In this document: positions 39,567 through 61,284 of the stretch, one piece after another
Position numbering within the stretch: the stretch's first letter is position 1
Layout of the letters: the number at the start of each line of letters is the position of its first letter
Assembly: GCA_041649575.1 (NCBI GenBank)
Contig: JBAZMW010000003.1
Coordinates: forward strand, 122,102 to 186,101
From: Patescibacteria group bacterium
GTDB lineage: Bacteria > Patescibacteriota > Patescibacteriia > 2-01-FULL-39-33
Direction of reading: 5' to 3'
Length of the DNA: 64,000 nucleotides
Translations under genes and position numbers: made by a program
The notes under the pieces: model-generated
What the model was told of the DNA's origin: nothing
The model's database searches: none
What the model saw: only the letters and a program-made list of their open reading frames with translations

Positions 39567-39958
39567 GGGGATGTTTTGATTCGATAGCTTGAAATAGCCA
39601 AGAGGCAGGCCGAGATTGGCAATTGCTCGTTAACTAACAGCCAAACATATAAGTGCCAAAAACTTATTAGCTAAAGTCAAAACTGCTTTTAGCGGTTTAG
39701 CTTTGGCGCCAGCTGTTGCCTAAACAGGCTTAACAGCCATCGCCTTGCCGACGCCTAATAGGCAAATAAGCGGTGTTATATTTTTAGGCTCGACCGGAAC
39801 CATAGTCTGGAGTTCTGGTTAAAATTTTGACCAGACCGTAGGCCGCCAGTGTTTTGCTTCTTTCCAATTGGCGGCTGAAACCCAAAGAAGCAAAAGCCTG
39901 TAAACCGCTGGGCCAATTTTACAGCTAGACAGGAGCTCATTACTCCTCATCTCCACCA
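39567..39958 (+). ncRNA. ssrA: tmRNA (ssrA)
   Basis: The 5' GGGGAUGUUUUGAUUCGAUAGC pairs with the 3' ..CAUCUCC-A-CCA acceptor, including the G3:U70 Ala identity pair, and CCA is encoded. An internal tag-like frame ends ..GLALAPAVA* before TAA (about 39660-39745). The T-arm is AGGAG-CUCAUUA-CUCCU, which is an atypical T-loop. It lies immediately downstream of smpB. Confidence 0.8.
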
Positions 39959-41195: not shown

Positions 41196-44100
41196 TTAAG
41201 CTGTCACTACCTTATCTTGTAAAGGCCGAACCGCCTCTATTACTTTTTTCAAGACAGCGGCGGGATTTTTACCGGCATAAGGAGCCGAGCGGCTGACCGC
41301 CTCGCCAGTGCCCCCCTGATGGCTGGCTTCCATCACCAGTTCGGCGGGGTTGATTCGGACATCGATATTACTCTCTGCCAAAGTAAACTGCAGGACACCT
41401 TTGGTCACCTTGGCCGCCGAGGCCTGGCCAGTTATACCGGCCTCAGAAAGAATCTTGGCAACTTCTTTGCTGGGAGCGGTGCCGGCTTCAACCAGTCTAG
41501 TTAACTTAACCCAGCTTTCAAGGTTTGGAGAGTTTAAGACTTCAGTACCGCTAATTAGCTTGCCAACCGCCGAGTCGGGAGCGACTTCTCCGCCAGCAAA
41601 AGTCAGAACCTTTTTGGCCAAATCGGCGCCATGACTTTCTACCAAACCGTTAAGCGTCTCGCCAGGAACAACTTTGGGGTTCCCGCTATAGAAACTAACC
41701 ACTTCTTTGGCCACACCCTTGACTCCCGATGATAAAATTTCGGCCGCTCGGCCTGGTTCAAGTCCGGCCTCATGCGCCTGACCCATCAGGTCGTAGGCGG
41801 ACTGATCTAAACTGACACCAGAACCTTTGACCAAGCCGACTACCTGACGCAAATAAGCATTATTAGACTCTATTTGCGATAGAGTTTTCTCGCTTAGCTT
41901 GCCGGCGGCCTGTAAAACCTTTCCTGTATCACCGGTTTTCGGATCAAAAAAGGTGCTGGCCACTAATTCATTAAACTTATCATTACCGGCTAGTTTGGCC
42001 AGATCTTCAGGAGTGACATGATCGATATTAGCCGGTAAACCAAACTCGGTTGGACTTTTGGCAACCGCGTCTTTGATGGAATCAACCAAATAGGTAATCT
42101 TGCCTTCACGAAAGACAGGTAGCTTTTTGAGAGCTTCCGAAGTCATTTTACTAATATCTACATCCTTCGGCAGTCCAAGTTCGGCGGGATAGGTCTGGCC
42201 GCTTTCTATGGCCTTTTTGACTGTTGATCCGAGCGCTGCTTCGCATTTCTTTTCGATAACTCCCCAGACAGTATGCGAACCTTTAGCCTCAACTCCTTCG
42301 ACGACTTCCAGCGCTTGCTCAAATTCAGTCAATTTTTCCGGCGCTTCCGGCCCAGGCGCGGTTTCCGTCGTGGCAGATTCTGCTGGCGCGGCACCTGGGG
42401 TATGTTCTGTTGGCGCACCGCCCGAAGCGGCTTCTGGCGCACCGGCGTCCGGCACTCGCGGAGCTCCTTCTGCTGGTGGGTTGCTCCCTTCAACTGTTGG
42501 TTGCTCTGCCGGCGCGGCGCCAGGAGTATGTTCTGCTGACGCTCCACCAGGAGCGGCTTCTGGCGCACCGGCGTCTAGAACTCGCTGAGCTCCTTCTGCT
42601 GGTGGCTGGCCTTCCGGCGAAACGCCGGCATGAGGGGCTTCCGCACCGCTTCCGCCGCTTCCGGCTTCAGCGGCGCCAGTGGCCGCGCCATGACCACGGA
42701 GCCATTGCCAAGGCTGAATACCGACAACCAGGCCAGCGGCGGCGGCTATCACGCCGCGTTGTATTTCTTTTCTTCTTTCAGCTCGGCCGGTTTGCTCTTC
42801 AGCTTGATGGGAAGTGCTAATATAAAAATCCAATTGATTAGACAAGGCATCGGCCAAAGAATAGCCGCTGGTATCAATGGCAGTCAATCTCTCCTCCATT
42901 CTAGCCAAACTGGCTTGATACATTTGATCAATAACCGGCTTCATTCTATCGCCAAAAACATCTACTTGACGCTTGCCTTTTCTTTCGGCCAAGGCCGTTA
43001 TTCTGGCCAACTCTTCCTTTAAATCCTTATCGCTTAAACTTCCAAACTTTTTTTCTAACCAAGCTTTGGCAGCTTTAGGATCTTTCCTTTTCTCTTTAGC
43101 GTATTCTTTATAAATCTTCTGGGCTAATCCTTTATCTCCAAAACGTTTAGTAAATCTTTCCAGAGCGGCGTCAACACCCATGGCGGTACCGGTACCGCCA
43201 AGTATTCTTCTGGCAAAAAAGACAGCGGTCAGCAACGGCGCCGAAGCGGCGAAAGAAGTGGCAACGGCCGGAGTGGCCAAAGCCACAGCGGCTCCCAACA
43301 AAGCGCCGGAAACAATCAGTCTGCCAGTGGCATGACGTTGCCACCATCCTTTAAGTCTTTCTCCTCTGCTTTTTTCCTTACCTTCAAACTCGGCCCAGAC
43401 TAGTTGGTTTTCCTTATCATACAAATCAACCAGTCCCTGAGCTAGACGATCTGGAAACATGGCCAGAGGACTAAGTTCACCGGTCTGTACTTTGGATCGG
43501 ATCGACTCTTGCAAAGTCGCTTCATAAGAACGCCTTAACTGCTCTAACTTCTGCTCGCCCTTCTTGCCGCGGAATTCGGATTTGCCAATAAGTTTCATCC
43601 TCTCTCGCCTGGCTTGATAATAGGCCTTGCGGGCTTGATCTAGGGTTGGTTTGTCTTCTTCAGTCTCAATTATTATAGGTCCTTCACCAGTTTTATCTGA
43701 TGGAGGAAAAGGAGCGGCATCATCTTCCTCTTCATGAGACTTTAGTGTCGATTCTTCCGATTCATCTTCTAATTCATCTTCCGGCTTCTTTCCTGATTCC
43801 TCAAGCTCACGCACAAGACGTTCAGCCTCAGCTAGATCAAGAGGTGCTGACTCTGACTCTAATGGAGGCGCTATTAATTCCACATCAAGAACCGACTCAA
43901 TCCAAGTCGCGTATGCCTTATTATCGACAAAATTAAAGGTACGTATATAGGGTTTTTCTCCCTCTTCCACTAAACCAAGAAATTTTTCTTCATAGGTCGC
44001 TGATAAATAAGTGACTCTTATCATGCTCCCTGGCTTAATACCCCTAAATTTTTCCAAAAGTCTTTCTGTTCTTTCGGCCGGACTTTCCTCTGGCAACGGT

Positions 44101-47042
44101 GAAGGTCTTTCTGCTTCTTCGTCTGGATTTTCACCCGACTCCGGAGCTGGCGGCGGTGGAGGAGGGAGAACTTCCCCAGATAAATCCCCAAGCGGTGCTT
44201 CTGAATCATCTGGCCGCATCACTTCAACGCTCTCTATTCTATTGGTATTTTCTTGCCTGCCATCTTCAAAAAGCAACAGCATCCCGGCTGTGGTATCCAC
44301 CAATCCCCTGAAGTCTCCGATAAAACTCGATCCGTCCGTACAGACCCCTGCTAGTTTATCGCCAGGCTTACAACCGCGAAGTACTGCAAGTACTCTTTCT
44401 ATTCTTTCTTTATCTTTTTTATCTTTATCTTCGGCGTCAGACTCTACCGGCGCAGGCCTAGGCGTTTCAACCGCCTCACTGGTCGCCGTCACCCTAGCTC
44501 TAACAATCTCGCCACCCGGCTTAGTAAAACCCATAGTAACAACCGCAGCAACTTTTAGATTACGGCCCTTGGGACCTTCAGTAAATGTAACCTCATGATA
44601 CTTCTCATTAATATTATCGCCCAGCTGAACTAGCCAAAGTCTAAAACCAAAACTTTGCATTAACCCTGATAAATATCCGACTTTTGCGGTTTCAAAAACG
44701 GGACCATTAACCGCATCACAATATTCTCTGCCAATTTCATCTACCAAAACTTGCACCGCGTGCTCTCTGCTTTCTGTTTCTATTTTGTCTTGTAATCCTC
44801 TAGCGCCAGCAGCTAGCTGTCTCATCCCCAAGGCTTCTGCTCTGCTAAGAATTGCTGAGAGCATGGCTTGCAGCTCTTGCTGTTCCGCGCTAAGCTCTGC
44901 TTCTGCTTTTTCGTCTCCTTTTGGTGTTTCTGGCGCCGGCTGTTCGATGGCCGGTGCTAACACCTCAATCTTTGTTATTAAAGAAAGAAGGATCTTTTTT
45001 GGCTTTAAGTCACTTGGTTTGCCTTTGATCTTTACGCGGTCACCTTCCACTCCATCAAAAAAGCCCTCTTCTTTCATTCCGCCCAAATCTACCAAAATCC
45101 TAGTGCCAAGCGGCAAATCTTTTAATTGATCGGCTGTTACTTCCCGTCCTGACTGCTTAGCGCCTAACCGCTCGGCTACCTCATTCATTATTTGCAAAGC
45201 ACATTCCCGAACCAAACCTCTGGCGGTTTCTTCTTCGGCGCTTTCTTTTTTGGGCCGATAACGAGCCTCTTGGCCGGCTGCGTTTGCAGCTGTTCTAAAA
45301 AGAGTATTTTCTAAAGCAACCAAATCTTTAGGAAGAACTTTTTCTTCCTGCTCTGTCATGTTCTGGATGATTCTTTGTTTTGTTTCCTCTAAAGCCTTTT
45401 TGAAAGCAGGCAAAAATTTAGTCTCAGATTCACCACTTCCTTCTCCTTTTAATTCTTGATCTTTCGAGCCATTCACTTCGGCCATAATTTGCTCCGCGCA
45501 CGCGCTAACCAGATTTAGAACAGCCGGCTCCTCGGCATGCTTCCAGCCTTTTGTCGCCCTGATAGTTTTGTCGAGAATCGACTTTTCTAATTTATCTTTT
45601 TCTTCCGGCTTAATCCTTCTTCTCTCACTCTTCATTCTTTTGACTATCTCCTCTCGCGTCTGGTCTAATGCCTCTTTAAAAGCTTCCAAGAATGCCTCAA
45701 ACTCATTTTTTTCCTCCCCCTTTCTGATAATTTCAGTGTCAATGCTTTCGCCAACCTCGCACTGGGCATTACCCTGTAATAGAATACGACAATTTTTGGC
45801 TTTTCTAATAGCCAGCTTAGCGCCATCCTCAACGACAAATCTGCTATCTGTCGCACTCTCGACTTCCATGGATATCCCGGCTCCGATCTTTTCTCTGCGC
45901 CTGTCGTTCATCTCTCTTCTTCTTACTGTTTTGAGCCCCGATCCTGGCTTTTCTTCTATAGATCCGCCATTCTTCCCGGTGGTATCAAGCTCGGCTTCAA
46001 TTTGTTCAGCGAAATTTTGGGATGCTTGGCGCACCAGGTCTTTTTCGGCTGCCGACTGCGCCTCCAAGCCGGTTTCTTTTTGGACGTCACGCTCAACTGT
46101 CCCAAAAAATATAGTTTTTTGCATATCATTGGCTTCTTGCGCATCATCAGCGCCAGCTCTAATTATGGTTATAAATTCTTGCCTTCTTCCATTTAAAACC
46201 CTCTCAAAAACAGGCAAAAACCTGTCTCTAAATTCCGGTCTGATTTCTGGCGACTCGGCCGCTGGAGCCCCTCCTTTTATTTCTCCTTTAAACGCGGCAT
46301 GGGTTTCACGCAGCCCCTCTAATTCAGCTACAACTGCTTCTAACTCTTTATATAAAGGATTAAATTCATCTCTTAAAGCTTCTATATCTTCACCTATACT
46401 CTCTAAAGCCTGCACACTAAAAACCTTATTTATTAAAAAACCCAAAAAACGTTCAATTATTTCAATCTCCTGATTAATGATTTTTTGAGCCCACTCCGGC
46501 TTGGCCTCTACCTTGGCCCTGACACTCGATAAAATAGTTTTGCCTTCAACTATGCCTGATCTCTCTTTGGCCGCGTTAACTTCTGCTCTAATTTGATCAA
46601 GAGCAATTTCGGCTTCTGCCGTCTCGGCCGGTGGCGGCGGGATTTCAACGCCAACTACGGGGAGATGTAATCCTAAAACTGATCTGGCATTATCAATAAC
46701 CCACCGAGCATTTGCCTTGTTGATTACTCCACCACGCCCTTCTTTCTTGAAAGTGTCAGACATATCCAAAATGTGCTCCAGTCCGGCTAAGAGCTCATCT
46801 AATTCCGGCGCCTGCAGGTCGGACAAATCGGACAAAGCATTAAAAGAATCTACAGCAGCCCTGAATTCTTCTACTTCTGGTTCCTTTCTTCCTGAAAGAT
46901 TAGTCTTTATTCTCAAAAGAGCCCTATTTATTCTTTTTCTTTTTTCCTTGTTCTCTTTTCTCTCGGCCTCTGTTGCCTCTCCTTCGGCTCCGGGCTCAAG
47001 CTCGTCTTCTTTGTCTGGAGTTTTTGGTTTATAATCTCCCAT
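41196..47042 (-). CDS. giant (1948 aa) acidic, coiled-coil/low-complexity protein with central TM segment, tandem Pro/Ala-rich repeats and repeated small beta-domains
   Basis: Single ORF; E/K-rich, predicted coiled-coil N-terminal half; three copies of a small module (..LRGCKPGDKLAGVCTDGSSFIGDFRGLVD.. / ..FRGIKPGSMIRVTYLSATYEEKFLGLVEEG.. / ..LPLGTRILVDLGGMKEEGFFDGVEGDRVKIKG..); a hydrophobic stretch LIVSGALLGAAVALATPAVATSFAASAPLLTAVFFA; a tandem approx 36-aa repeat (GAQRVLDAGAPEAAPGGASAEHTPGAAPAE x2), which is a 108-bp DNA repeat at about 42366-42590; and a C-terminal approx 400-aa globular region. Confidence 0.75.
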   Translation of the reverse strand: MGDYKPKTPDKEDELEPGAEGEATEAERKENKEKRKRINRALLRIKTNLSGRKEPEVEEFRAAVDSFNALSDLSDLQAPELDELLAGLEHILDMSDTFKKEGRGGVINKANARWVIDNARSVLGLHLPVVGVEIPPPPAETAEAEIALDQIRAEVNAAKERSGIVEGKTILSSVRAKVEAKPEWAQKIINQEIEIIERFLGFLINKVFSVQALESIGEDIEALRDEFNPLYKELEAVVAELEGLRETHAAFKGEIKGGAPAAESPEIRPEFRDRFLPVFERVLNGRRQEFITIIRAGADDAQEANDMQKTIFFGTVERDVQKETGLEAQSAAEKDLVRQASQNFAEQIEAELDTTGKNGGSIEEKPGSGLKTVRRREMNDRRREKIGAGISMEVESATDSRFVVEDGAKLAIRKAKNCRILLQGNAQCEVGESIDTEIIRKGEEKNEFEAFLEAFKEALDQTREEIVKRMKSERRRIKPEEKDKLEKSILDKTIRATKGWKHAEEPAVLNLVSACAEQIMAEVNGSKDQELKGEGSGESETKFLPAFKKALEETKQRIIQNMTEQEEKVLPKDLVALENTLFRTAANAAGQEARYRPKKESAEEETARGLVRECALQIMNEVAERLGAKQSGREVTADQLKDLPLGTRILVDLGGMKEEGFFDGVEGDRVKIKGKPSDLKPKKILLSLITKIEVLAPAIEQPAPETPKGDEKAEAELSAEQQELQAMLSAILSRAEALGMRQLAAGARGLQDKIETESREHAVQVLVDEIGREYCDAVNGPVFETAKVGYLSGLMQSFGFRLWLVQLGDNINEKYHEVTFTEGPKGRNLKVAAVVTMGFTKPGGEIVRARVTATSEAVETPRPAPVESDAEDKDKKDKERIERVLAVLRGCKPGDKLAGVCTDGSSFIGDFRGLVDTTAGMLLLFEDGRQENTNRIESVEVMRPDDSEAPLGDLSGEVLPPPPPPAPESGENPDEEAERPSPLPEESPAERTERLLEKFRGIKPGSMIRVTYLSATYEEKFLGLVEEGEKPYIRTFNFVDNKAYATWIESVLDVELIAPPLESESAPLDLAEAERLVRELEESGKKPEDELEDESEESTLKSHEEEDDAAPFPPSDKTGEGPIIIETEEDKPTLDQARKAYYQARRERMKLIGKSEFRGKKGEQKLEQLRRSYEATLQESIRSKVQTGELSPLAMFPDRLAQGLVDLYDKENQLVWAEFEGKEKSRGERLKGWWQRHATGRLIVSGALLGAAVALATPAVATSFAASAPLLTAVFFARRILGGTGTAMGVDAALERFTKRFGDKGLAQKIYKEYAKEKRKDPKAAKAWLEKKFGSLSDKDLKEELARITALAERKGKRQVDVFGDRMKPVIDQMYQASLARMEERLTAIDTSGYSLADALSNQLDFYISTSHQAEEQTGRAERRKEIQRGVIAAAAGLVVGIQPWQWLRGHGAATGAAEAGSGGSGAEAPHAGVSPEGQPPAEGAQRVLDAGAPEAAPGGASAEHTPGAAPAEQPTVEGSNPPAEGAPRVPDAGAPEAASGGAPTEHTPGAAPAESATTETAPGPEAPEKLTEFEQALEVVEGVEAKGSHTVWGVIEKKCEAALGSTVKKAIESGQTYPAELGLPKDVDISKMTSEALKKLPVFREGKITYLVDSIKDAVAKSPTEFGLPANIDHVTPEDLAKLAGNDKFNELVASTFFDPKTGDTGKVLQAAGKLSEKTLSQIESNNAYLRQVVGLVKGSGVSLDQSAYDLMGQAHEAGLEPGRAAEILSSGVKGVAKEVVSFYSGNPKVVPGETLNGLVESHGADLAKKVLTFAGGEVAPDSAVGKLISGTEVLNSPNLESWVKLTRLVEAGTAPSKEVAKILSEAGITGQASAAKVTKGVLQFTLAESNIDVRINPAELVMEASHQGGTGEAVSRSAPYAGKNPAAVLKKVIEAVRPLQDKVVTA

Positions 47043-47067: not shown

Positions 47068-47385
47068 TTATTTTAAATTCTCGCGCCAAGCCGCGACATC
47101 GCCGGCCAGCTGTTCTTTGAAATTGGTGACCTCTTCCAAAATTATCGCCTGCAGATCAACCTTGCCGTTCAAAAACTGTCCGATTTCTTCGTCGGAGACG
47201 CCTTTGGCGGTGAGTTTGTCAAACTCCAACTGATCCGGCTCGGAGAACTCATCCATCAGACGGAAAGAAACGCGGTCGCTAACCACCTCGTTTAGTTTGG
47301 TGAGTAAAACTTGTTTTTTGGCTTCATCCAGGTTTTCCAGGCCCAAAATGTTGAAAACATTCTGATCCAAAAAGAGTAAATTCAT
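47068..47385 (-). CDS. small acidic hypothetical protein, co-operonic upstream partner of the 1948-aa gene
   Basis: 105 aa, pI clearly acidic (many D/E); 25 nt upstream of the giant gene on the same strand. Confidence 0.5.
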   Translation of the reverse strand: MNLLFLDQNVFNILGLENLDEAKKQVLLTKLNEVVSDRVSFRLMDEFSEPDQLEFDKLTAKGVSDEEIGQFLNGKVDLQAIILEEVTNFKEQLAGDVAAWRENLK

Positions 47386-47602
47386 AAATTTTATTTATTT
47401 TTTATTGTTAATTATTGAATTTTGTTTAAAATAACAGTATTCCAGCTAGAGCTTAATCTGGCTGTCTGAATATATTATACCAAACAAAGAGAATTGGTGA
47501 AAGGGTGGCAAAATAAATAATTATTAACTAATTTTATTTATACTTTTTGGCTAAAATTAGATAATATTCTTGATAAAAAAGAAGCTTTTTTCTCAACTAC
47601 TA

Positions 47603-47631
47603 TTGACAAATTATTTATGGTATGCTATAAT
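47603..47631 (+). promoter_or_regulatory. perfect sigma70-type promoter TTGACA-17-TATAAT (cassette copy 1)
   Basis: TTGACA at 47603-47608, a 17-nt spacer, TATAAT at 47626-47631; embedded in the conserved context TACTATTGACAAA...GTATGCTATAAT. Confidence 0.75.
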
Positions 47632-47716
47632 GAGTAGTTCGGTAAGTAACCGAAAGCACATCACAAAGGCAGCCCTGGTAATGACACCGGGGTTCGCAAG
47701 AGAAAAGGAGAAGACG

Positions 47717-48697
47717 ATGGGTACGGACACAGGAATAGAGGACGATGTGGTGATTATTGGTGAGGACACCGGCATCGCTGACACCGGCATCGCTGACACA
47801 AAGACGAGTCGGCCGAAGCGTAAAGTCGGAATCTGGCGGATCGTGCTGGGCCTGATCGGCCTGGCGCTCATCGCCTTCGCGGCATTGACCGCGTACGGCC
47901 TGATCGTCAAGACCGACGCGATTGACCGGCGTGTCGTCGTGCTGGAAAATCGCGTCGACGGTTTCGACGAACGCATCAAGGCCGGTGACGAGGCGGTCGA
48001 GGACATCTCCAAAGCCACCGACGATCTGTGGAGGCGAATGGCGAATGTCGAGAAACGCTTCGACAAGGATGGAGAATTCGCGAAGACCGTGGCCGCGGTT
48101 GCCAAGACCGCCGAAGACGTGACGGCGCTGCAAGCCGCGGTCGATGAAATCCCCGATGCCATGGCCGAGGCCACAGCTGGAATCGAAGGCCGGGTCAAAG
48201 CCCTCGAAGACGGCGCCGCGCAGGCACAGGAGAGGGCCAGCCGCGAGCTCCTGATGCTCAAGGTTGCCGAGATCCGCCGCGCGAATCCGGCGAGCGATGT
48301 CAGCGCCATGAGCGACGCGGACATTGGCAAGACGCTGGCTGGCAAGGGCGGCAACGATTTTCGCAAGAAGATTGAGGCCGCATACGTCAGCCTCGGAGCC
48401 AAGCCTGTCGTCACGGCACCAGCTCCGGCTCCAGCACCGGCACCAGCGCCAGCGGTAAATCTGGCTGAGGTAGAACGCCGGCTGGACGCGGCCGAGAAAG
48501 AAGTAAAACTTGTCGGGCAAGCCGCCAAAACCTTGGCGACGAATCCTGACAAGCCGAAGCACCTGGTGCGTGGCGCCAAGGCGAGGGCGCTCAAGCTGTT
48601 GGTGGATGTCCCCGACGACTTGCCACCCGCCTCCGCAAGACCGGCATCCCCGAAGAAGGACAACGTCATCCGGCCGGAGTTCGGGGACCGGCCGTAA
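47717..48697 (+). CDS. GC-rich island gene: coiled-coil protein with N-terminal TM helix and (PA)n repeat
   Basis: Start chosen at the ATG with strong RBS (AAAAGGAGAAGACG-ATG) downstream of the promoter; the track ORF starts upstream of the promoter at 47570. TM WRIVLGLIGLALIAFAALTAYGLIV; long Ala/Glu-rich helical region; PAPAPAPAPAPA run. Confidence 0.6.
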   Translation: MGTDTGIEDDVVIIGEDTGIADTGIADTKTSRPKRKVGIWRIVLGLIGLALIAFAALTAYGLIVKTDAIDRRVVVLENRVDGFDERIKAGDEAVEDISKATDDLWRRMANVEKRFDKDGEFAKTVAAVAKTAEDVTALQAAVDEIPDAMAEATAGIEGRVKALEDGAAQAQERASRELLMLKVAEIRRANPASDVSAMSDADIGKTLAGKGGNDFRKKIEAAYVSLGAKPVVTAPAPAPAPAPAPAVNLAEVERRLDAAEKEVKLVGQAAKTLATNPDKPKHLVRGAKARALKLLVDVPDDLPPASARPASPKKDNVIRPEFGDRP

Positions 48698-48730
48698 CAC
48701 GTACCTTTGATCGCGCACCTCGTGCGTTAG

Positions 48731-48780
48731 CCCCCCCAGACTCTGGCAGTTTCATAGAGTCTGGGGGGTGAATTATTTTA
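48731..48780 (+). terminator. stem-loop terminator after island coiled-coil gene
   Basis: CCCCCCAGACTCT-(loop)-AGAGTCTGGGGGG, an 11-13 bp stem, followed by a U-poor tail TGAATTATTTT. Confidence 0.55.
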
Positions 48781-49160
48781 GAGAGATTTTGCTTTTATAT
48801 ATTGACTAAACAAGACAAAACTGATAAAATTATTTTTGATATTTATGGATTACTGCCCCCGCCAGAATGACTCTGTCGGGCTGGCGCCCGACTGAACGGC
48901 GTTCAGCCGTTCGGGCGGGGCTCAGTCTTGCCCCGTAGAATACTGCTAAAGCAGTAGCGCCAGAGGCGCTATTCTACGGGGTGAAGTTAGAGCGCTCCCC
49001 CTGTCACGGAAGAGGGTCGCCGTAGGCGACGGGCAGAAGCGAGCCATGAGCAAAGCGAATGAAACGAGCGTAGATGAATGCGACCATGGGAGCATTCGGC
49101 TCTGCCAGGAAACATCGGGTGCAACCCGCGACCGTCAAACTTTTTACAAGTTAATATTTA

Positions 49161-49234
49161 TGGATTGGTAGCTCAGTTGGTTAGAGCGCTCCCCTGTCAC
49201 GGGAGAGGTCGCGGGTTCGAGTCCCGTCCAGTCC
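49161..49234 (+). tRNA. tRNA-Asp (GUC)
   Basis: Acceptor GGATTGG/CCAGTCC, D-arm GCTC-AGTTGGTTA-GAGC, anticodon arm CTCCC-CTGTCAC-GGGAG, T-arm GCGGG-TTCGAGT-CCCGT, discriminator G; CCA not encoded. It is followed by the hairpin ATCACCC-TTGC-GGTGATTTTTGTTTT. Confidence 0.85.
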
Positions 49235-49413
49235 GCTGGATAAAACAAAAATCACCCTTGCGGTGATTTTTGTTTTACTACACGAAGTGGAGAGGGGCTC
49301 GAACGGGTTGGCAGCGAGGCAAATCCGAAGGATGCAGCCGAGCGTCAAAAATTGCGAGCTGGCGCAGCAATTTTTGCCAACCCAGGACAGAGTGAGCAAA
49401 GCGAACGCCGAGA

Positions 49414-49430
49414 AGTCCCGTCCAGTCCGC
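49414..49430 (+). repeat. 17-nt direct repeat of the tRNA-Asp 3' end (AGTCCCGTCCAGTCCGC), att-like scar
   Basis: Exact copy of tRNA positions 49219-49235, about 180 bp downstream. Confidence 0.7.
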
Positions 49431-49539
49431 ATTTTTCTAGTCAGCCCCAAGTGGGCTGATTTTTGAGAATAAAAAAGAGCGGCGATCCACACGACGGTGA
49501 ATCTCCCGCTCTACAATGTCCTGATAGCCTTTCAGCGGT

Positions 49540-50268
49540 TTATCCTCTGCCACCGCCGACCAGTGCGCGTAACGCGTTGAACATGCCATCAGCCACTTGT
49601 GTCCTTCGCGTATCCATGGACTCAAGCATGGCATCGATCCTGTCGAAGCCGTCTCGACCGTACTCAAGAAGTGTTGGGCCATAGAATAGCCGCGTGAACA
49701 GTTCATTACCGACAAAACTCCATTCGGTGTAAGGCGTCTCTGAGTAACCGTCAGAGTTGTCGTGGATGTCGAAAACCCTGTTGGTGTGCGTACCGGCGAT
49801 GAGAATATCGCCACCCTCGACTTGTCCGGTTACAGTCACCAACGCCTGTTGAAGCCTCTCCATAAAATACTCCTGGTACCACTCCCTGACTTTCGTCAGG
49901 ACAATGTTTCTCGATTCCTCCGGAAGATTGGTGACAATGTGCCCGGTCTGCCTCGGACTGAGCCTGACCATCGAGTTGCTGCTCAACTTGTCCAAGAACA
50001 CGCCCAGACCGATGTTCAACCAGAGGCCATCCGTGAGGTTGAGAATGGGAGAGTTGATGATAAAGATGTGTGTCCTAGCTTGATCTGGGTCCTGGGCAAT
50101 TCGACGAATGACCTCCAGTCCGTCTTGTTGGTTGAGACAAAGGTGGGGACGAAAACAGCTTTCTTTCGCTTGCACTAGGGCAGCAATTCCCCTGTTAAGA
50201 TCCTGGTGCAACTGTGACCGGTCGTCAAAGTCAACCAGTAGGGTGTGGCTTTTCTTCTGATCCGACAT
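49540..50268 (-). CDS. GC-rich island gene: hypothetical alpha/beta protein (242 aa from ATG with GAGGAG RBS)
   Basis: Alternating beta-alpha pattern (HTLLVDFDD.., THIFIINSP.., DILIAGTHTNRVFDIHDNSDGY); no motif recognised. The track ORF uses an upstream TTG (to 50292). Confidence 0.55.
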   Translation of the reverse strand: MSDQKKSHTLLVDFDDRSQLHQDLNRGIAALVQAKESCFRPHLCLNQQDGLEVIRRIAQDPDQARTHIFIINSPILNLTDGLWLNIGLGVFLDKLSSNSMVRLSPRQTGHIVTNLPEESRNIVLTKVREWYQEYFMERLQQALVTVTGQVEGGDILIAGTHTNRVFDIHDNSDGYSETPYTEWSFVGNELFTRLFYGPTLLEYGRDGFDRIDAMLESMDTRRTQVADGMFNALRALVGGGRG

Positions 50269-50478
50269 ATTCTTCTCCTCGATGTTGACCAAAGAATGTA
50301 CGATTGTTAAAAAGGTATACTAAATTAAGTATTTTGTCAAATACTAAAACATAATAACTCATTATTACTATTGACAAGCCTAATATCTTGTGCTAAACTT
50401 ACCAGTTATCGATTTTGAGTCAGTACTTTGTGTAGAGCACGACAAACCGGTTCCGTGACATGAACAGGAGGACGACCA

Positions 50479-50856
50479 GTGAAAAACCACAATAGTTATG
50501 CCACTTACCAACCGAGCGACCAGCGGCTTCGCGAAGCCGACCACTGGGAGGTCTGGGATAAGCTACCGCCCGAGCTCAAGTTTGAGGCAGTGGCGGCTCG
50601 CGACCCCTCTCTGACCGCTCTGTGTGCCCGAGACAAGGGCGTGTACGTCTGGGTATTCCCGCACGCTGTACCTTCGGTCCAAAGTGGCATTGGACCATTC
50701 ATGGCTCTAGGGTCGCGACGCGGCAAGGATCGCATGGACTTCATCGTGACAACTCCTTCGGCGGATGACCCCATCGCGTTCGCCAAAGCCGAGAATGCGA
50801 GAAAGCTGAGGGAGCTGTCAAAGGGCGCCAAGGGTCCGAAGAACCATCAGAAATGA
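50479..50856 (+). CDS. GC-rich island gene: hypothetical 125-aa protein, GTG start with AGGAGG RBS
   Basis: Divergent from 49540..50268; preceded by TTGACA-17-TAAACT (50373-50401) in the ACTATTGACAA context. Confidence 0.5.
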   Translation: MKNHNSYATYQPSDQRLREADHWEVWDKLPPELKFEAVAARDPSLTALCARDKGVYVWVFPHAVPSVQSGIGPFMALGSRRGKDRMDFIVTTPSADDPIAFAKAENARKLRELSKGAKGPKNHQK

Positions 50857-51203
50857 GATGGGCGGTCGTCAAAGCCGCTACCGTCTCAACAACGCCGCAT
50901 CAGCTACCTGGTGCGGCCGTTTTAAATAATAATTTTGTTATACAGATACCAAAAGAGTTAATTTCCATCCACTCCAGAGTCCTCCGCCTAAGCTAAAGTT
51001 TTGGCGGACAAGTAAAACCTGCCTTGACTCGCGTCAGGCCTGGCGTCGCCGAAGGCTATGCCAAAGGCGCGTGAGGCAGGTCGTCCCGCAAGTCTCGGCA
51101 AAATAAACTCAGGACTCAATCACTTCCAAATCAATAAAATTTGCAAAAAGCGCTTTATATTTGATATAATAAAAACACGACTTAAAAAATAATTTATCTA
51201 ACT

Positions 51204-51407
51204 ATGCAAAAAATAGCTACAAGCATCTTTATCTTCGCGTCAATTGTTTTCGGCGTTATAGGAATTTTAGTAGTTTTAACAATGCCAGGACCCGGCAGAA
51301 CGAATTCGGATCTGAATGAATTATTTATTAGGCTTCTGTTCGCGACTGCCTTTATTATACTGCCTTCATTTGCATTAAGCATCGCCGGTAAGTATCTAAA
51401 AAAATAG
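51204..51407 (+). CDS. small (67 aa) two-TM membrane protein in AT-rich insert
   Basis: Two hydrophobic helices; AT-rich codon usage, unlike the surrounding island. Confidence 0.4.
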   Translation: MQKIATSIFIFASIVFGVIGILVVLTMPGPGRTNSDLNELFIRLLFATAFIILPSFALSIAGKYLKK

Positions 51408-51644
51408 ATTCCGATTTTAAACTTCCTTAGTCCAGTCTTTATATCAGATGTTCTTCTTTTTTTAATTCCATTGGAATATCAACAATACCCCCGTGCTCTT
51501 AAAAAATTTACAATCTCAAAATTAATAAAAAAATCCCCATCAATGGGGGTATTTTTATTTTCTGTCTTCTCTGGCGCCTATAATTACTGCCGCTATTACC
51601 AAAATTGTTAAAACCATAACTCCAAACAACATCATACCAAAATT

Positions 51645-52016
51645 TTACTTAATCTGTTTTTTCTTTTTAAACCAGCCGACGAGAAACAAGATGCCGATCA
51701 AAAACGCGACGCCGGAAAATTGTGCCGCCCATAATAATAAATACCACTCGAATTGATTTCTCGCTAGCGCGGCCAGATACAACGCGCCAGCTAAAATAAA
51801 AATAGTTCCCCCAACAATTTCATATTTCCAAGAGATTATCAGAATAACCAGCAGCACCAAGGCGGGAATATTGTGCATGAACAAACCGACAACCGTTCCC
51901 CAGAAACCCAGCTTCATATCGAAAATGTCCAGCGAAAACAACATCAAAAACAAAATAAACAAAATCGACAATATCCTTGGAATCCAATATATAAATCTAT
52001 TAACATTATTCCTCAT
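51645..52016 (-). CDS. hypothetical 4-TM membrane protein (123 aa) in AT-rich insert
   Basis: Four hydrophobic segments; no motif. Confidence 0.5.
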   Translation of the reverse strand: MRNNVNRFIYWIPRILSILFILFLMLFSLDIFDMKLGFWGTVVGLFMHNIPALVLLVILIISWKYEIVGGTIFILAGALYLAALARNQFEWYLLLWAAQFSGVAFLIGILFLVGWFKKKKQIK

Positions 52017-52318
52017 ATTTATTGTTTTATTTATATAATCAGTCTTTGAGTTTATTATACCACTTCCTGCCCGTCTCGCCCAATCCGGAATTTTAAAACC
52101 CGCCCCGACTCAACGAGGCTGGTGCGAGGCAGGTTGTCCCGCGGTCAGAACAGCTGCCGGTCGGCGCCAAGGCGGCTGCTTTAAAAATTTTAATTTTTTG
52201 CAAGCTGCACCAATGAATGTTAAAAATATTTCTTAAAAATAAATCAACCTTAAAATTTCTGGTAAATGAAAAAGGCCACCGCGACGTGCGATGGGCCTGT
52301 AGTCACTTCGCCACCTGT

Positions 52319-53098
52319 TTAGGCGGCTTCGTAAAGGTTCTGGTTGTAGTACTCCAACCGCAGACGGCCACGGCTGCCCTCGCCCGGTACGCCGACATAC
52401 TTGGTGACGCCGCAGTTGCGAGGCTTTTGTTCTTCGTCCAGTACGATGAACTCCTCGGCCGAGAGACGTTCGTAGTTGGCGCGCAGAGCCAGAATGTTCA
52501 AGTGATGGGTGACGGCCAAAACCCTCTTGCCGGAAAATTCCCGGACCAGGGTGTTGGCCCAATCGCGGTTACGCTGGCGCACATCAGGAACATTCTCACC
52601 CTGAGGGTAGCGATACCAGTAGCGACCCTCCAATTGATACAACGCGCGCTGTTCCGGATGAAGAGCAAAAAACACTCTCAAATCGTTGTAGACGTTGACC
52701 AGGCCGTGTTCCTGTTCCCGAATCCTTTCCTCTTCGTAGTACTTCACTCCTGCCAACTCCGGCCAACCGGCAATTAGCCCCCGCCAGGTCGCCTGCGTGC
52801 GAGCGTAGGGAGAAACGAAGACTACATCAGGCAGGTCTTCTATCTTACTAAGCGCCAGCCCCGTCTTCGTTGCCCGCGTGGCTTCGGCATCAGCTAGAGG
52901 TGCATTGGCATCGCTTACACCGAGACGATACTTCTGCCACACCGCTATAGCCAATGCCCTACACCTATCAGTTTCTGGGTTTTCGTCATACTTTCTGACG
53001 AACTGCCGATAAAGATCGTCCGCCTCCTTCATCCACTTGAGCTGGTTGTAGGCAGAAACATCGTGCCTTATGGCAATGATACAGGCTGGCCATTTCAT
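52319..53098 (-). CDS. histidine phosphatase (phosphoglycerate-mutase-like) family protein, GC-rich
   Basis: RH(G)-type motif IIAIRHDVSAYN near the N-terminus and a second His region VLAVTHHLNILAL. Start set at the internal ATG with GAAGGAGG RBS; the track begins at 53125. Confidence 0.6.
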   Translation of the reverse strand: MKWPACIIAIRHDVSAYNQLKWMKEADDLYRQFVRKYDENPETDRCRALAIAVWQKYRLGVSDANAPLADAEATRATKTGLALSKIEDLPDVVFVSPYARTQATWRGLIAGWPELAGVKYYEEERIREQEHGLVNVYNDLRVFFALHPEQRALYQLEGRYWYRYPQGENVPDVRQRNRDWANTLVREFSGKRVLAVTHHLNILALRANYERLSAEEFIVLDEEQKPRNCGVTKYVGVPGEGSRGRLRLEYYNQNLYEAA

Positions 53099-53321
53099 GG
53101 GCGTCAAGCCTCCTTCAAAAGTCACTCTCGCTGCTCTGGCAATCTGTCGTTACCGCCAGAAACCCAGAAATCCCTCTCGTCTATAAACCACATAAAGAAC
53201 GGTTCCAGTTCATCGATCGCGTCGCTCCAAACGTCCTAATATTAAACGTTCAATCTCCCTTGTGTTGGAGAATAAATTATTTTATTATATAAATTCCTTT
53301 TTGTCAACTGTCAAATTTTCT

Positions 53322-53350
53322 AAAACCCTCCCGATTAATCGGGAGGGTTT
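53322..53350. terminator. bidirectional terminator (CCCTCCCG..CGGGAGGG family)
   Basis: AAAACCCTCCCG-ATTAAT-CGGGAGGGTTT; a T-run on the minus side follows the pilin-like gene. Confidence 0.7.
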
Positions 53351-53374
53351 CAATTTTCAAACTCCGAGTTGCTT

Positions 53375-53890
53375 TTATTTTATTCCCAAAATTTCAAAAA
53401 TCATTTTCAGAATAACATAGGAGAGAAAAATAATCACCAGGCCGGCAATCGCCCAGATCATGGTGTTTTTGCCTTTAGTCACCCGGCCGGAATCGCCGCC
53501 GGAAACCATCCAGAGCAAGCCGCCGTAAATGAAAGCGATCAAAGCCAAGACTCCGGTGAACCCCAAGGCGGCGGTGATAATGTTTTTGGTGATGACTTGC
53601 ACCGCCTCAATGCCTTTTTTGCCGCCGGTAATGCCCTCCAGGGGATCTTTCAGACTCTGGGCCGAACCAGCGCTGCCGCCAGAAACACCTGTACCTTCTG
53701 GAGCGGAAACACCTGTACCTTCGGCGACACATTCCCCAACCTCAGAAAAAGGGTCGGCAAAACTACAGATTTGACCAGGGCCGCAATCGGCTTTAGTAGT
53801 ACAAGCTAAAACGATATTAGTGAGAGATAAAAATAAAAAAACAGAAAAACCAAAGAATGTTAATATCAACCAACCGCTTTTTCTTTTCAT
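53375..53890 (-). CDS. small secreted TrbC/VirB2-like (T4SS-pilin-like) protein
   Basis: Signal peptide, Cys-containing approx 60-aa segment, then a C-terminal two-helix hairpin LIAFIYGGLLWMVSGGDSGRVTKGKNTMIWAIAGLVIIFLSYVI. This shares the (Y)xG(F/L)LWM(T/V)xxG..K..SAF/LSY pattern with the N-termini of the two giant proteins. Confidence 0.65.
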   Translation of the reverse strand: MKRKSGWLILTFFGFSVFLFLSLTNIVLACTTKADCGPGQICSFADPFSEVGECVAEGTGVSAPEGTGVSGGSAGSAQSLKDPLEGITGGKKGIEAVQVITKNIITAALGFTGVLALIAFIYGGLLWMVSGGDSGRVTKGKNTMIWAIAGLVIIFLSYVILKMIFEILGIK

Positions 53891-54051
53891 AATATGTTAT
53901 TAAATGGTATATATTAATTCAATTATAGCTAATGGCAAAAATAAAGTAAATAACAATTTTAACAAAAAGAAAAACGGCCCGAGTTGCGCGATGCAACCCT
54001 GGCCGTTGTAGAACCGGTTGGAATTGGAATAGGTGGGTGATACAAGGCCGA

Positions 54052-54639
54052 CTATGAGAAGCGTATTCTCCTGATATGGACCTCTCCAATGGAGAGGCCG
54101 TGGAGAACCAGCTGACCCTCACCGTCGATCTTGATCACCTCGTCGCTGGCGATCGTCTGATAACCGCCCGCCTTCTGCTTGATCTTGAAAGGAGCGGTTA
54201 CGCGACTAAACTCCACGACGTCACCCGGGAAGATGGCCAGGCCGGAGCTGATCGGCTTACCAGGGCAGAACTTGATGTCCCTTTCCTCCACCGATCTGAT
54301 CGTCTTGGCCTTGGGCAACGAGGGCAAGCGAATGGCGCTGACTTTCGCCGCCACCTTCGCCTTGGCGTCGACCAGGTACGCGGGACGATAGATCGTCACC
54401 AGGACCAAGGCCAGGCCTAGTCCAGCAGTGACGTAGAAAGCCTTTTTCTTGCCCATGGCCTCCCAGACGATCCCGCCGATACCCAGAAAAATCATCAGGG
54501 CAATAGTCGCCTGAATCGGAATCCTCGCATGCTGGTCGTCTTCCTGTGACCAGAAGAAGACGCCCAGGATAATCCCGATAACTACGGCGAAGGCAATCAC
54601 CTTGCCAACCTTCTTAAGAAAACCCCAGGCTTCCTTCAT
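54052..54639 (-). CDS. GC-rich island operon gene 3: membrane protein (3 TM) with C-terminal beta-rich domain
   Basis: The start ATG overlaps the upstream stop (ATGA) and carries a GGAGG RBS. The track ORF extends to 54729. A compound hairpin plus T-run terminator lies downstream (about 53955-54000, minus). Confidence 0.55.
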   Translation of the reverse strand: MKEAWGFLKKVGKVIAFAVVIGIILGVFFWSQEDDQHARIPIQATIALMIFLGIGGIVWEAMGKKKAFYVTAGLGLALVLVTIYRPAYLVDAKAKVAAKVSAIRLPSLPKAKTIRSVEERDIKFCPGKPISSGLAIFPGDVVEFSRVTAPFKIKQKAGGYQTIASDEVIKIDGEGQLVLHGLSIGEVHIRRIRFS

Positions 54640-55208
54640 GGCAGCATCCTCCTTCCTAGTAGCTTCCGCAAGATTTCGACTATGCCTTGGCCAGCCAGTT
54701 CGGACTTCAGATCCTTCCAGAATGTCCAACTCCCGGCACCCGTGGCACTTCCGGCACCACCAGCACTTCCGCTGACCGTACCACGTTTGGTAGCACCGGC
54801 CAGGGTATTGTGTATAGCGTCAGCCAGCTCTTCGCGAAAGCTGAGTATCAGATACACAATGGCTACTGGCCAAGTGAAGAAGGCCGCCTTCCACCACCAC
54901 CATGACGGACAGTTATTGGCCGGTGACGGTGGCGTCTCATAGCCAAACACTTTGTCGAGCTGATGGAATATGTCTCGGCTGGCCGAGAAGAATAGCCCTT
55001 CGCCAAAGCCAACGAAGAATGCTTCCGCCGTGAAGACGATGGCGACGATAACCAGTCCGCAGGCACGGTAGTTATTGTTATACACCAGCCGCGCCGCCAG
55101 GTAGCCACAGTCGTAACTGATTCTCTCTGTCGTCATGCATGCCAGAAAGAGAAACAGCCCGACCGCTCCCGCCAAGAAGGCGAGATTGAGTATTATCCAG
55201 TTGATCAT
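54636..55208 (-). CDS. GC-rich island operon gene 2: 4-TM membrane protein with WWWW motif and Gly/Ser-rich tail
   Basis: Start ATG overlaps the stop of the upstream gene (ATGA); 190 aa. Confidence 0.55.
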   Translation of the reverse strand: MINWIILNLAFLAGAVGLFLFLACMTTERISYDCGYLAARLVYNNNYRACGLVIVAIVFTAEAFFVGFGEGLFFSASRDIFHQLDKVFGYETPPSPANNCPSWWWWKAAFFTWPVAIVYLILSFREELADAIHNTLAGATKRGTVSGSAGGAGSATGAGSWTFWKDLKSELAGQGIVEILRKLLGRRMLP

Positions 55209-55708
55209 GACCGCGTCTCCTTTCTGTTCTTCTCTGCCTTGGGCCGTATTACCCCACGACGAACCAGTTCGTATTCGCGAACTTCCCTAAATGCGCCCCA
55301 AAAACCACCCATGTAGGACTTCTTGAATCTCGGTCCCAATATCGTGACGGTCTTGGTGTTCGCCTGGCTGCCCTTGTCCCTGAAGGTGAACATTTCACGT
55401 TTACCTCTGACTTGGTGCTCGTGGTGCCCACTTCCCTTTTCATCGGTAATGATGATCTTCTTCTTCCCGTCGTGGAGCATCACGATTTCGGTGCGTGGAA
55501 TGGGTCGACCATCCTCGGTGAACTGAACGACGAATGCGGTTTGGCCGTCATCGTCCGTGTCAAAGGTCACCTCAATATCGTACTCCGCAGCCGCCGGCTT
55601 CTTCTCTTCTTTCTTGGAATCGCCTCTCGACTGGCCGCACTTCACGCACCTACCGGCCTTGAAGAAATTCACATTTCCACAGCCGCACGTCCAACTCTCG
55701 TTTGCCAT
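55205..55708 (-). CDS. GC-rich island operon gene 1: zinc-ribbon protein (CxC..CxxC) with unknown C-terminal domain
   Basis: Start at the ATG with AAAGGAGAG RBS (MANESWTCGCGNVNFFKAGRCVKCGQ..). The track ORF extends to 55807 but has poor RBS spacing. Confidence 0.55.
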   Translation of the reverse strand: MANESWTCGCGNVNFFKAGRCVKCGQSRGDSKKEEKKPAAAEYDIEVTFDTDDDGQTAFVVQFTEDGRPIPRTEIVMLHDGKKKIIITDEKGSGHHEHQVRGKREMFTFRDKGSQANTKTVTILGPRFKKSYMGGFWGAFREVREYELVRRGVIRPKAEKNRKETRS

Positions 55709-55832
55709 GGCCTTACTCTCCTTTCCTAATCCAACCGTTCTGTTAAAGAACTGGGCTGGAAACCGTTTTCCCTTGTTATACCCCTCTTCGCCTTGAAAAG
55801 GAGTCATTTCAGGGGAAAGCCGTTCCTCCAGC

Positions 55833-55861
55833 CTAACATATAATTATAGCATACTATCAAT
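55833..55861 (-). promoter_or_regulatory. perfect sigma70-type promoter TTGACA-17-TATAAT (cassette copy 3, minus strand)
   Basis: On the minus strand the sequence reads TACTATTGACAAAATATTGATAGTATGCTATAAT. It shares the TACTATTGACAA and GTATGCTATAAT blocks with the 47603 promoter. Confidence 0.75.
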
Positions 55862-55944
55862 ATTTTGTCAATAGTAAATTAAATAAATAAAAATAGCTAA
55901 ATTTAGCTAAAAACTTAAAACGCAAAGGTTAAAAAAATATAGAG

Positions 55945-56781
55945 TTAATCTTCTGCTTTAGGTTTTGAATTTTTACGCCTCGACTCGCCGAAGGCGAGAC
56001 AAGTAGCTTTGACTTTCAATATCCCTACGCCAGCTATGATTAATAGAACACTGATTATTTGCGGCAGCCTGATTCCCCACCACAGAGCCGTCTCGTCGAT
56101 ACGGATAAACTCCATAAAAAATCTGATCAGCCCATAGCCGATAAAATAAATGGCCAAGAGCGACCCTGGCCGGCAGTTGTTTTTTCTGGCCAAAAGAAAC
56201 AAGATCAAAAACAAAACAAAATCCAAAACAGATTCATACAAAAAAGCGGGCTGGAAATATCGGTTTGACAAAAAAATTTCCGGACGATTTTTCGGTTCGA
56301 TGGGAATGCCCCAGGGCAAGTTGGTGGGCCGACCAAACAACTCTTGATTGAAATAATTGCCCCAGCGGCCAATGGCCTGGCCCAGGGCCAGAGCGGGAGC
56401 AGCCAAGTCGACTACTTGCCAAAAGGAAATTTTCTTTTTTCGGCTCCAAAAAATTACCACGATGATGCCGCCAATAATGGCGCCATGAATCGCCAGGCCG
56501 CCTTGCCAAATTTTAAAAATCTCCGGCAAGTTGTGACTGTAATAGGACCAATCCAAAACAAAAACCTGATAAAGACGGGCGCCCAAAATACCGCCGACAG
56601 CCAGCCAAAGGCCCAGGTCTAAAGCCAGCTCAAATTTTAGGCCTCTTCTTTTGGCCAGAGAGCCGGCGACCAGAATGCCCAGAAGCAAGCCCAAGACGAT
56701 TATCAGACCATACCAGCGAAACGAGAGCGGCCCAAACTGGAAGATAATCGGCTGCGGATAAAAATAATGAAAAAAATTCAT
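55945..56781 (-). CDS. lgt: prolipoprotein diacylglyceryl transferase
   Basis: WYGLIIVLGLLLG.., QGGLAIHGAIIGG, GRWGNYFNQE signature. Confidence 0.85.
   Translation of the reverse strand: MNFFHYFYPQPIIFQFGPLSFRWYGLIIVLGLLLGILVAGSLAKRRGLKFELALDLGLWLAVGGILGARLYQVFVLDWSYYSHNLPEIFKIWQGGLAIHGAIIGGIIVVIFWSRKKKISFWQVVDLAAPALALGQAIGRWGNYFNQELFGRPTNLPWGIPIEPKNRPEIFLSNRYFQPAFLYESVLDFVLFLILFLLARKNNCRPGSLLAIYFIGYGLIRFFMEFIRIDETALWWGIRLPQIISVLLIIAGVGILKVKATCLAFGESRRKNSKPKAED

Positions 56782-59583: not shown

Positions 59584-61284
<1,701 letters not shown>

Follow-up and report, generated by a model that had tools for sequence, protein, structure and literature searches.

Patescibacteria, the Candidate Phyla Radiation (CPR), rely on host-cell contact, and for the majority of their envelope proteins a function has yet to be assigned. 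The subject of this report is a locus in a 64-kb stretch of DNA from a Patescibacteria group bacterium (assembly GCA_041649575.1, contig JBAZMW010000003.1, positions 122,102 to 186,101; the whole stretch is referred to below as the window), in which three overlapping genes, here named g1, g2 and g3 and together called the cassette, encode a zinc-ribbon protein and two membrane proteins, and are followed by a gene for a VirB2-like pilin. The nearest described relatives of the pilin are the VirB2/TrbC-like proteins of the PF18895 family. A survey of type IV secretion systems (T4SSs) in Patescibacteria found PF18895 pilin genes near virB4 in 1,135 of 1,948 assemblies, reported orphan pilin genes away from virB4 in many of these bacteria, and noted that in about 40% of the VirB4-containing assemblies with VirB2-like pilins the pilin gene is not near virB4 (PMC12102498). 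Because the words 'zinc' and 'lgt' are absent from its main text, the survey seems not to describe a module of the kind reported here. The window pilin has the signal peptide and two hydrophobic helices in common with these Patescibacteria pilins; unlike them, it has an extra N-terminal four-cysteine segment and a short EGTGVS repeat, and it adjoins lgt and the cassette, not virB4.

The monoderm T4SSs of the mating pair formation FATA (MPF-FATA) class, with inner-membrane components VirB3/PrgI, VirB6/PrgH and VirB8/PrgL, likewise place small polytopic membrane proteins, one of them with an extracytoplasmic domain, beside a pilin-type gene. However, no sequence or profile similarity of these components to g2 or g3 was found, and alignment with hhalign of the g2, g3 and long-g3 profiles to PrgI, PrgH and PrgL of pCF10 gave probabilities below 1%, in a comparison with single template sequences and of limited sensitivity. 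The cassette is also without a neighbouring VirB4, the signature ATPase of such systems: in the window, where it covered the main open reading frames (ORFs), the Pfam scan detected no domain of VirB4, VirB6, VirB8, a coupling protein or a relaxase, nor is there one among the precomputed Pfam labels through which the flanks of five other cassette loci (L082, L086, L088, L090 and L096) were read. VirB8 has an NTF2-like fold, in contrast to the cupin-like jelly roll predicted for the C-terminal domain of g3. To our knowledge, no described T4SS includes a zinc-ribbon partner in the cytoplasm.

Some resemblances extend to single domains. The N-terminus of g1 has a four-cysteine ribbon like those of DZR (PF12773) and RanBP2-type proteins, but the likeness ends after about 35 residues. 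The rest of g1, with its beta domain and GFW tail, is foreign to those families, as is its obligatory pairing with g2 and g3. The C-terminal domain of g3 is best fitted by the designed double-stranded beta-helix (DSBH) 6e5c (E 4e-5, TM-score 0.64 normalised to the target), with many cupins matching too; its sequence identity to cupin/DSBH domains is 6–21%, the His/Glu metal motifs of cupin metalloproteins are not conserved in the g3 family (alignment A3, no His/Glu columns), and unlike cupin domains it is tethered to a membrane anchor and is probably extracytoplasmic. In comparison with anti-phage defence systems, the cassette has no PADLOC match and sits in a conserved backbone, not in a variable defence island. 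Searches of Pfam, NCBIfam, PHROGs and PADLOC with g1, g2 and g3 gave no match, and apart from a generic zinc ribbon and a generic jelly roll the three families match no described family or solved structure. We rate the system as fitting no known kind and as categorically new in its family and system membership, with a narrow distribution.

Conservation of the cassette and its neighbourhood

The order g1-g2-g3 is kept in at least 14 distinct Patescibacteria contigs, with spacers that are short or overlapping. An exhaustive phmmer search with the concatenated proteins against 1.84 billion representatives recovered 29 relatives spread over all three families, including g1-like proteins (P0006, P0022 and P0031) and g2-like proteins (P0004, at 43% identity and E 2e-28, and about 17 others); homologues of the g3 C-terminal domain are P0007, P0011, P0013, P0020, P0023 and P0030. 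Two proteins are fusions, with P0010 joining the g1 beta-domain to g2, and P0032 joining g2 to a long form of g3 in what is a single uninterrupted ORF in locus L086. The homologues are divergent, at 20–43% identity, and profile hidden Markov models (HMMs) built from the relatives find all of g1, g2 and g3, in their usual order, elsewhere among the loci with E values of 1e-20 to 1e-60. A word-index search of 5.8 billion clusters with g1, g2 and g3 had returned self matches only, which was misleading, the lesson being that word-index singletons became a family only through exhaustive HMMER searching and synteny. The family amounts to about 30 clusters at 50% identity (single-sequence search), in which every database member is annotated as 'hypothetical protein' and all that carry an organism name come from Patescibacteria, and the module appears to be confined to a narrow clade. 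A scan of metagenome contigs with a sub-alignment of g2 gave two loci, both already known, and a putative g1+g2 fusion seen by eye in L068 (Uhrbacteria) is not counted, its HMM scores being below significance.

The gene neighbourhood is shared as well. In the window, groEL (59584-61221), pyk and lgt are followed by the cassette, the pilin gene, a variable segment, and then L20, IF3, tmRNA, SmpB and AI-2E. Loci L082 to L085 have the arrangement groES-groEL-140aa-MamF-pyk-103aa-lgt-g1-g2-g3-pilin-pilin-transposase, and L096 to L098 have the same backbone as L082, followed by a pilin gene, a restriction-modification (R-M) system and L20-L35-IF3-SmpB-AI-2E. Seven genomes in all have the cassette set in a groEL-pyk-lgt-cassette-pilin arrangement. 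Tblastn searches of 80 loci fetched around Lgt homologues picked out a weak match to g2 in L002, located between lgt and the pilin gene, and both L002 and L009 encode a zinc-ribbon protein, a g2-like protein (with YPSWFWWK and AFREE), a polytopic protein with a beta-rich C-terminus, and then a pilin. The region is apparently part of a conserved chromosomal block in a Buchananbacteria-related clade of Patescibacteria. In L003 and L086 the order is lgt-pilin-cassette, and the pilin gene is adjacent to the cassette, on one side or the other, in seven of seven lgt-linked loci. In L004 (Buchananbacteria, with a GroEL 85% identical) the genes after lgt are unrelated and convergent, and the cassette and the pilin gene are both missing. 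L088 and L090 have the cassette with no lgt nearby, followed by a DUF5663 gene and, in L088, by a giant protein. The cassette is the conserved core, and its linkage to a pilin gene is frequent but not universal. The initial annotation had named homologues that are never co-located in other genomes as grounds for rejecting it; they are in fact co-located elsewhere in the same order, and the fusions join g1 to g2 and g2 to g3.

Anatomy of the locus and its proteins

The cassette and the pilin gene all lie on the minus strand and form two transcription units, the first comprising g1, g2 and g3 and the second the pilin gene (Table 1). The sequence recurs on an 8.7-kb Logan contig (L001), and the NCBI locus tags, WC518_03205/03210, belong to a contig of 191,558 bp.

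Table 1. Coordinates of the cassette, the pilin gene and their associated elements in the window.
Feature	Coordinates	Strand	Description
g1	55205..55708	-	167 aa; N-terminal CxC...CxxC zinc ribbon, beta-rich middle domain, C-terminal GGFW amphipathic motif
g2	54636..55208	-	190 aa; 3 transmembrane helices; motifs NNNYR, GFGEG, PSWWWWK, FREE; C-terminal amphipathic helix
g3	54052..54639	-	195 aa; 3 transmembrane helices; C-terminal all-beta domain, residues ~114-194
Pilin	53375..53890	-	171 aa; signal peptide, 4-Cys segment, EGTGVS repeat, two hydrophobic helices
Cassette promoter	55843..55871	-	TTGACA-17-TG-TATAAT, sigma-70, extended -10, score 12/12
5' leader	55709..55836	-	~128 nt; fold z = -2.7
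Leader hairpin	55780..55804	-	Pyrimidine 5' arm ACUCCUUUUCA, purine 3' arm CGAAGAGGGGU
Cassette intrinsic terminator	53960..54006	-	Bulged 13-bp hairpin 54006-53974, then U-run UUUUUCUUUUUGUU 53973-53960; -25 kcal/mol, z = -2.3
Pilin promoter-like site	53922..53950	-	TTTACT-17-TATAAT
Pilin terminator	53321..53352	-	Perfect 14-bp stem, -28.6 kcal/mol, z = -5.4
lgt	55945-56781		Upstream of cassette; PF01790

The initial annotation had described an ATGA-coupled operon of three genes with a consensus promoter, a compound hairpin and T-run as terminator, and a pilin-like gene directly downstream as a separate unit, and all of these elements are borne out. The stop and start codons overlap at 55208-55205 (g1 and g2) and at 54639-54636 (g2 and g3), and each start is preceded at 7–9 nt by a Shine-Dalgarno (SD) sequence (AAGGAG for g1, at 55708, AGGAG for g2 and GGAGG for g3). 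The promoter is a perfect match, and nine other cassette loci have equivalents (11–12/12, extended -10) 113–276 nt upstream of g1. The pilin gene has its own promoter-like site and its own terminator; a spacer of the same composition between g3 and the pilin gene, with a GC hairpin, a T-run and then a promoter, is found in L082, L096, L002 and L009, and the promoter hexamers are identical in L082 and L096, 55–60 nt before the pilin start.

Leaders are long (78–241 nt) in all of the cassette loci examined. Across six of them (the window, L082, L096, L090, L088 and L002), RNAalifold gives a leader hairpin of 11 pairs, four with compensatory changes, and 86% of its cells are paired, compared to 75% in shuffles (0 of 500) and 54–62% in slid controls. 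With only six sequences this conservation is suggestive, and the hairpin is a possible cis-regulatory RNA; a search of Rfam with the leader gave nothing at gathering thresholds. The pyrimidine arm is anti-SD-like and the purine arm SD-like, and most loci have a recurrent motif, YTTGACAAY, 35–60 nt ahead of the g1 start. In the L002 leader (~5640-5880) a stretch of about 95 nt, comprising the hairpin's 3' arm and the small hairpin that comes next, is duplicated in tandem. We also considered a small upstream ORF in place of the hairpin (in the window its ATG is at 55807, in frame with g1), and dropped it as the main explanation because the base pairing is kept across loci and the start codon is not.

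In g1, translation starts at the ATG at 55708 and not at 55807, where a longer ORF had been opened: ten of ten homologues begin with Met-Ala at the aligned position, the SD spacing fits 55708 only, and the Logan gene caller likewise gives a protein of 167 aa. The zinc ribbon recognised earlier stands, with C8, C10, C21 and C24 conserved in at least 90% of the family, as two cysteine pairs at the spacing of about 10–15 residues expected of CxxC-type knuckles. DZR/Zn-ribbon models of Pfam are matched by seven of 11 family members, the window protein alone giving E 0.12 against DZR, below the Pfam thresholds; a profile search of the PDB returned zinc ribbons only (RanBP2 or DZR-type), and one family member matches CarboxypepD_reg (E 0.0015). 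The ribbon is followed by a linker, a beta domain of about 90 residues and a conserved amphipathic end, GFW-x-NF.

The second protein, g2, had been put down as having four transmembrane helices and a WWWW motif; the motif is present as PSWWWWK, whereas hydropathy gives three transmembrane helices and a C-terminal amphipathic helix. In a 19-member alignment (A1) the family layout begins with transmembrane helix 1, a GQLLSNNNYRW loop, helix 2, GFGEP, and a variable hydrophilic loop of 0–60 residues, and continues with YPSWWxW running into helix 3, AFR(D/E)E, a low-complexity linker and the amphipathic helix. PDB profile searches with g2 and with g3 found nothing.

The three transmembrane helices and beta-rich C-terminal domain ascribed to g3 are both recovered, the latter as an all-beta domain in a single-sequence AlphaFold2 (AF2) model with a predicted local distance difference test (pLDDT) score of 80–90 in this domain. 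Foldseek matches to it are of DSBH/cupin-like type (E 4e-5 to 1e-3), and in the model it is a confident all-beta jelly roll of a generic cupin-like kind. Invariant residues in A3 are G133, G139, D140, F151 and G181. The window protein is a short relative of the long g3 forms of 300–460 aa, which have five transmembrane helices and extra beta-rich segments. At 4222-5699 of L088, a long g3 is truncated after 108 codons and is followed by a 249-aa ORF resembling a transposase; the break looks like an insertion sequence (IS) insertion into the cassette.

The claim that the 171-aa protein is secreted and TrbC/VirB2-like is upheld by the signal peptide and by a match to PF18895 (T4SS_pilin) above the gathering threshold (E 2.6e-9, 37.5 bits against a cutoff of 26.6, model positions 4–70 of 71); the match to TrbC (PF04956) is weak. 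Its hydropathy segments (12–30, 104–122 and 147–165) correspond to the signal and two hydrophobic helices, as the T4SS_pilin family requires. The pilins of other loci are 35–51% identical to it, and it is an ordinary new member of PF18895. The signal peptide ends in VLAC, the cysteines are C30, C36, C42 and C54, and the EGTGVS repeat is a direct one that precedes the pilin domain. A lipoprotein link between the pilin and lgt was considered because of VLAC; the L002 and L003 pilins have no cysteine there, so lipidation by the neighbouring Lgt is not a conserved feature.

A candidate envelope platform and its alternatives

The operon structure, the kept gene order, the fusions, the shared regulation, and the adjacency to and co-absence with the pilin gene argue for a single, strongly expressed membrane complex of g1, g2 and g3. 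We propose, and regard as evenly balanced, that this complex forms an abundant platform in the envelope or at the surface, working together with the VirB2-like pilin; the link to the pilin, taken by itself, is tentative and falls somewhat short of even. Unit 1, strongly promoted, translationally coupled and with a structured leader, would provide the three proteins for one complex in the cytoplasmic membrane. In this complex g1 would be a cytoplasmic adaptor of a zinc ribbon and a beta-sandwich that docks through its C-terminal GFW helix, g2 would turn its NNNYR loop and FREE tail towards the cytoplasm, with its variable loop and tryptophan belt at the outer face, and g3 would display a small jelly-roll domain outside the membrane. 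We infer the cytoplasmic position of the NNNYR loop and FREE tail from P0010, which has two extra transmembrane helices between its g1 part and NNNYR, and the g2-g3 fusion implies that the N-terminus of g3 would be inside and its C-terminal domain outside, after three or five transmembrane helices. Unit 2, directly behind the terminator, would make the VirB2-like pilin, and the platform would anchor, assemble or cooperate with this or other pilin-domain surface proteins with no T4SS driven by a secretion ATPase. Between the window and L082 the identities are 78% for GroEL, 56% for pyk, 55% for lgt, 43% for the pilin, 40% for g1, 39% for g2 and 27% for g3. Exposed envelope proteins often evolve fast, and the divergence of the cassette fits proteins of this type.

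The initial annotation had suggested a surface-appendage, secretion or conjugation-like system. A surface or appendage role is still reasonable, but secretion and conjugation find no counterpart in VirB4, VirB6, a coupling protein or Prg similarity; co-occurrence with VirB4, also raised there, was seen neither among those ORFs of the window that were scanned nor among the Pfam labels for the flanks of the five cassette loci. A bolder form of the platform, in which g1, g2 and g3 would constitute a VirB4-independent CPR machine that inserts, anchors or polymerises two-helix pilin-module proteins under control of the leader hairpin, we consider unlikely. Its clients would be the adjacent pilin and, perhaps, the giant adhesins with pilin domains that this genome encodes, and if true it would be a new minimal surface-display or pilus-assembly system for host-cell attachment. 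The module is a concrete, testable candidate for part of a surface apparatus, in a clade with abundant VirB2-like pilins whose assembly is poorly understood.

Several observations weigh against the platform. First, the single-sequence AF2 model of g1 (pLDDT 43) is unusable, no contig was traced for the fusion P0010, the topology is drawn from the fusions and from hydropathy and the positive-inside rule only, and the g3 tail after its third transmembrane helix is itself basic. Secondly, VirB2-like pilin genes are common in these genomes: of 80 lgt loci, 22 gave tblastn hits to the window pilin (23 of 81 if L001, the window's own Logan contig, is included). Thirdly, the cassette and the pilin gene do occur apart. 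There is no pilin gene within about 10 kb in L088, the nearest in L090 is 4 kb off and on the other strand, and L008 and L043 have lgt and a pilin gene adjacent with no recognisable cassette. All seven cases of adjacency share the lgt neighbourhood, and the adjacency could be inherited synteny.

These last observations are what would be expected if the cassette were an autonomous envelope or membrane module, e.g. a membrane-wall link or a sensor, with no functional tie to the pilin, and the adjacency reflecting only conserved synteny in streamlined genomes. This is the main rival, which we judge possible if rather doubtful. It is favoured by the L088 and L090 cassettes, which have DUF5663 and the giant protein as neighbours in place of a pilin, by the lgt-pilin pairs in which no cassette was detected, by the pilin gene having its own promoter and being insulated by a terminator, and by the extra extracytoplasmic beta-rich segments that the long g3 forms bear. 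However, the cassette and the pilin gene remain neighbours when their order flips (L003 and L086) and are absent together from L004, and the sensor version would call for an output domain, of which Pfam shows none (kinase, HTH or cyclase).

We think it very unlikely that the locus is a minimal conjugation-like system or T4SS, in which g2 and g3 would be extremely diverged analogues of VirB3, VirB6 or VirB8 and VirB4 would be encoded elsewhere. A VirB2-like pilin does adjoin polytopic membrane proteins, the scan took in the window, which is part of a 191-kb contig and of the genome, and T4SS components of Patescibacteria are very diverged, with about 40% of the VirB4-containing assemblies that have VirB2-like pilins keeping the pilin gene away from virB4 (PMC12102498). 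On the other side are the lack of a VirB4, VirB6 or coupling-protein domain in the ORFs and flanks surveyed above, the hhalign probabilities against PrgI, PrgH and PrgL, and the jelly roll of g3, which is not the NTF2-like fold of VirB8.

The cassette had also been called an island, and a defence or abortive-infection role had been raised. Horizontally acquired cargo of this kind, or a prophage or lysis remnant, is highly improbable. The composition is what invites it, with a GC content in the window cassette of 0.53–0.56 and a GC content at third codon positions (GC3) of 0.63–0.75 compared to a window mean of 0.45, and so does the bordering segment, which is variable and is taken up in L096 by an R-M system, in L082 by a transposase, and in the window by ORFans and tRNA-Asp. 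But the cassette exceeds its own surroundings in GC, and usually in GC3, in every genome examined, with GC contents of 0.53–0.58 in L082 (whole locus 0.45), 0.46–0.51 in L002 (0.42), 0.44–0.46 in L009 (0.38) and 0.54–0.58 in L090 (0.48). Because orthologous cassettes in four other genomes share it, the offset is a family trait and no evidence of recent transfer, and together with the fixed chromosomal position, held in genomes with GroEL only 78% identical, it points to long residence; possible causes are high-expression codon bias, amino-acid composition or gene conversion. The island description gives way to a cassette within a conserved groEL-pyk-lgt-cassette-pilin backbone, and no integrase or repeat boundary was found at the cassette. 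The defence role is likewise not supported, in that PADLOC and PHROGs gave no match, 50,697 phage records searched by tblastn with the three proteins concatenated gave none, and a scan of viral contigs with the g2 alignment found no relative.

That the three genes are chance open frames in GC-rich, non-coding DNA, as the self matches of the first three word-index searches might have suggested, can be dismissed, because homologues with conserved motifs in other genomes (the 29 HMMER relatives) mark the ORFs as real genes, the profile HMMs recover the three in order, GC3 exceeds GC1 and GC1 exceeds GC2 in the called frames, and ribosome binding sites, coupling, promoter and terminator are all in place.

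Variable segment and giant proteins

The truly variable DNA of the window lies after the pilin gene, at about 41.2–53.3 kb. The segment from the pilin gene to a DUF5663/giant pair (~47400-53300) varies between loci, being occupied by the R-M system in L096 and the transposase in L082. In the window it contains GC-rich ORFs without a family (47570-48697, with a coiled-coil, 49540-50292 and 50479-50856), tRNA-Asp at 49162-49236 (+), a DUF7670 gene (51645-52016) and a gene for a His_Phos_1 protein (52319-53125). Beyond it are a weak DUF5663 match (47068-47385, -, E 0.0028) and then a 1948-aa protein with no Pfam match (41196-47042, -), the C-terminal part of which is homologous to the 1037-aa protein directly after the L088 cassette (33% over 270 aa, E 5e-27). 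In L090, too, a DUF5663 gene comes directly after the cassette (6874-7194; the corresponding giant/DUF5663 region of L088 is 5912-9534), and the DUF5663/giant combination is a second recurrent neighbour of the cassette.

Two consecutive genes elsewhere in the window, 12320-15553 (-) and 2391-12284 (-), encode giant proteins of 1077 and 3297 aa, each starting with a PF18895 domain, and downstream of these domains are Big_5, DUF4215 and Laminin_G_3. This suggests that in the window genome the VirB2-type two-helix module anchors large adhesins or mediates their incorporation. Finally, a tmRNA gene lies beside smpB at 39567-39958 (+) (Rfam RF00023, 111.6 bits); it is ordinary, and marks the conserved backbone.

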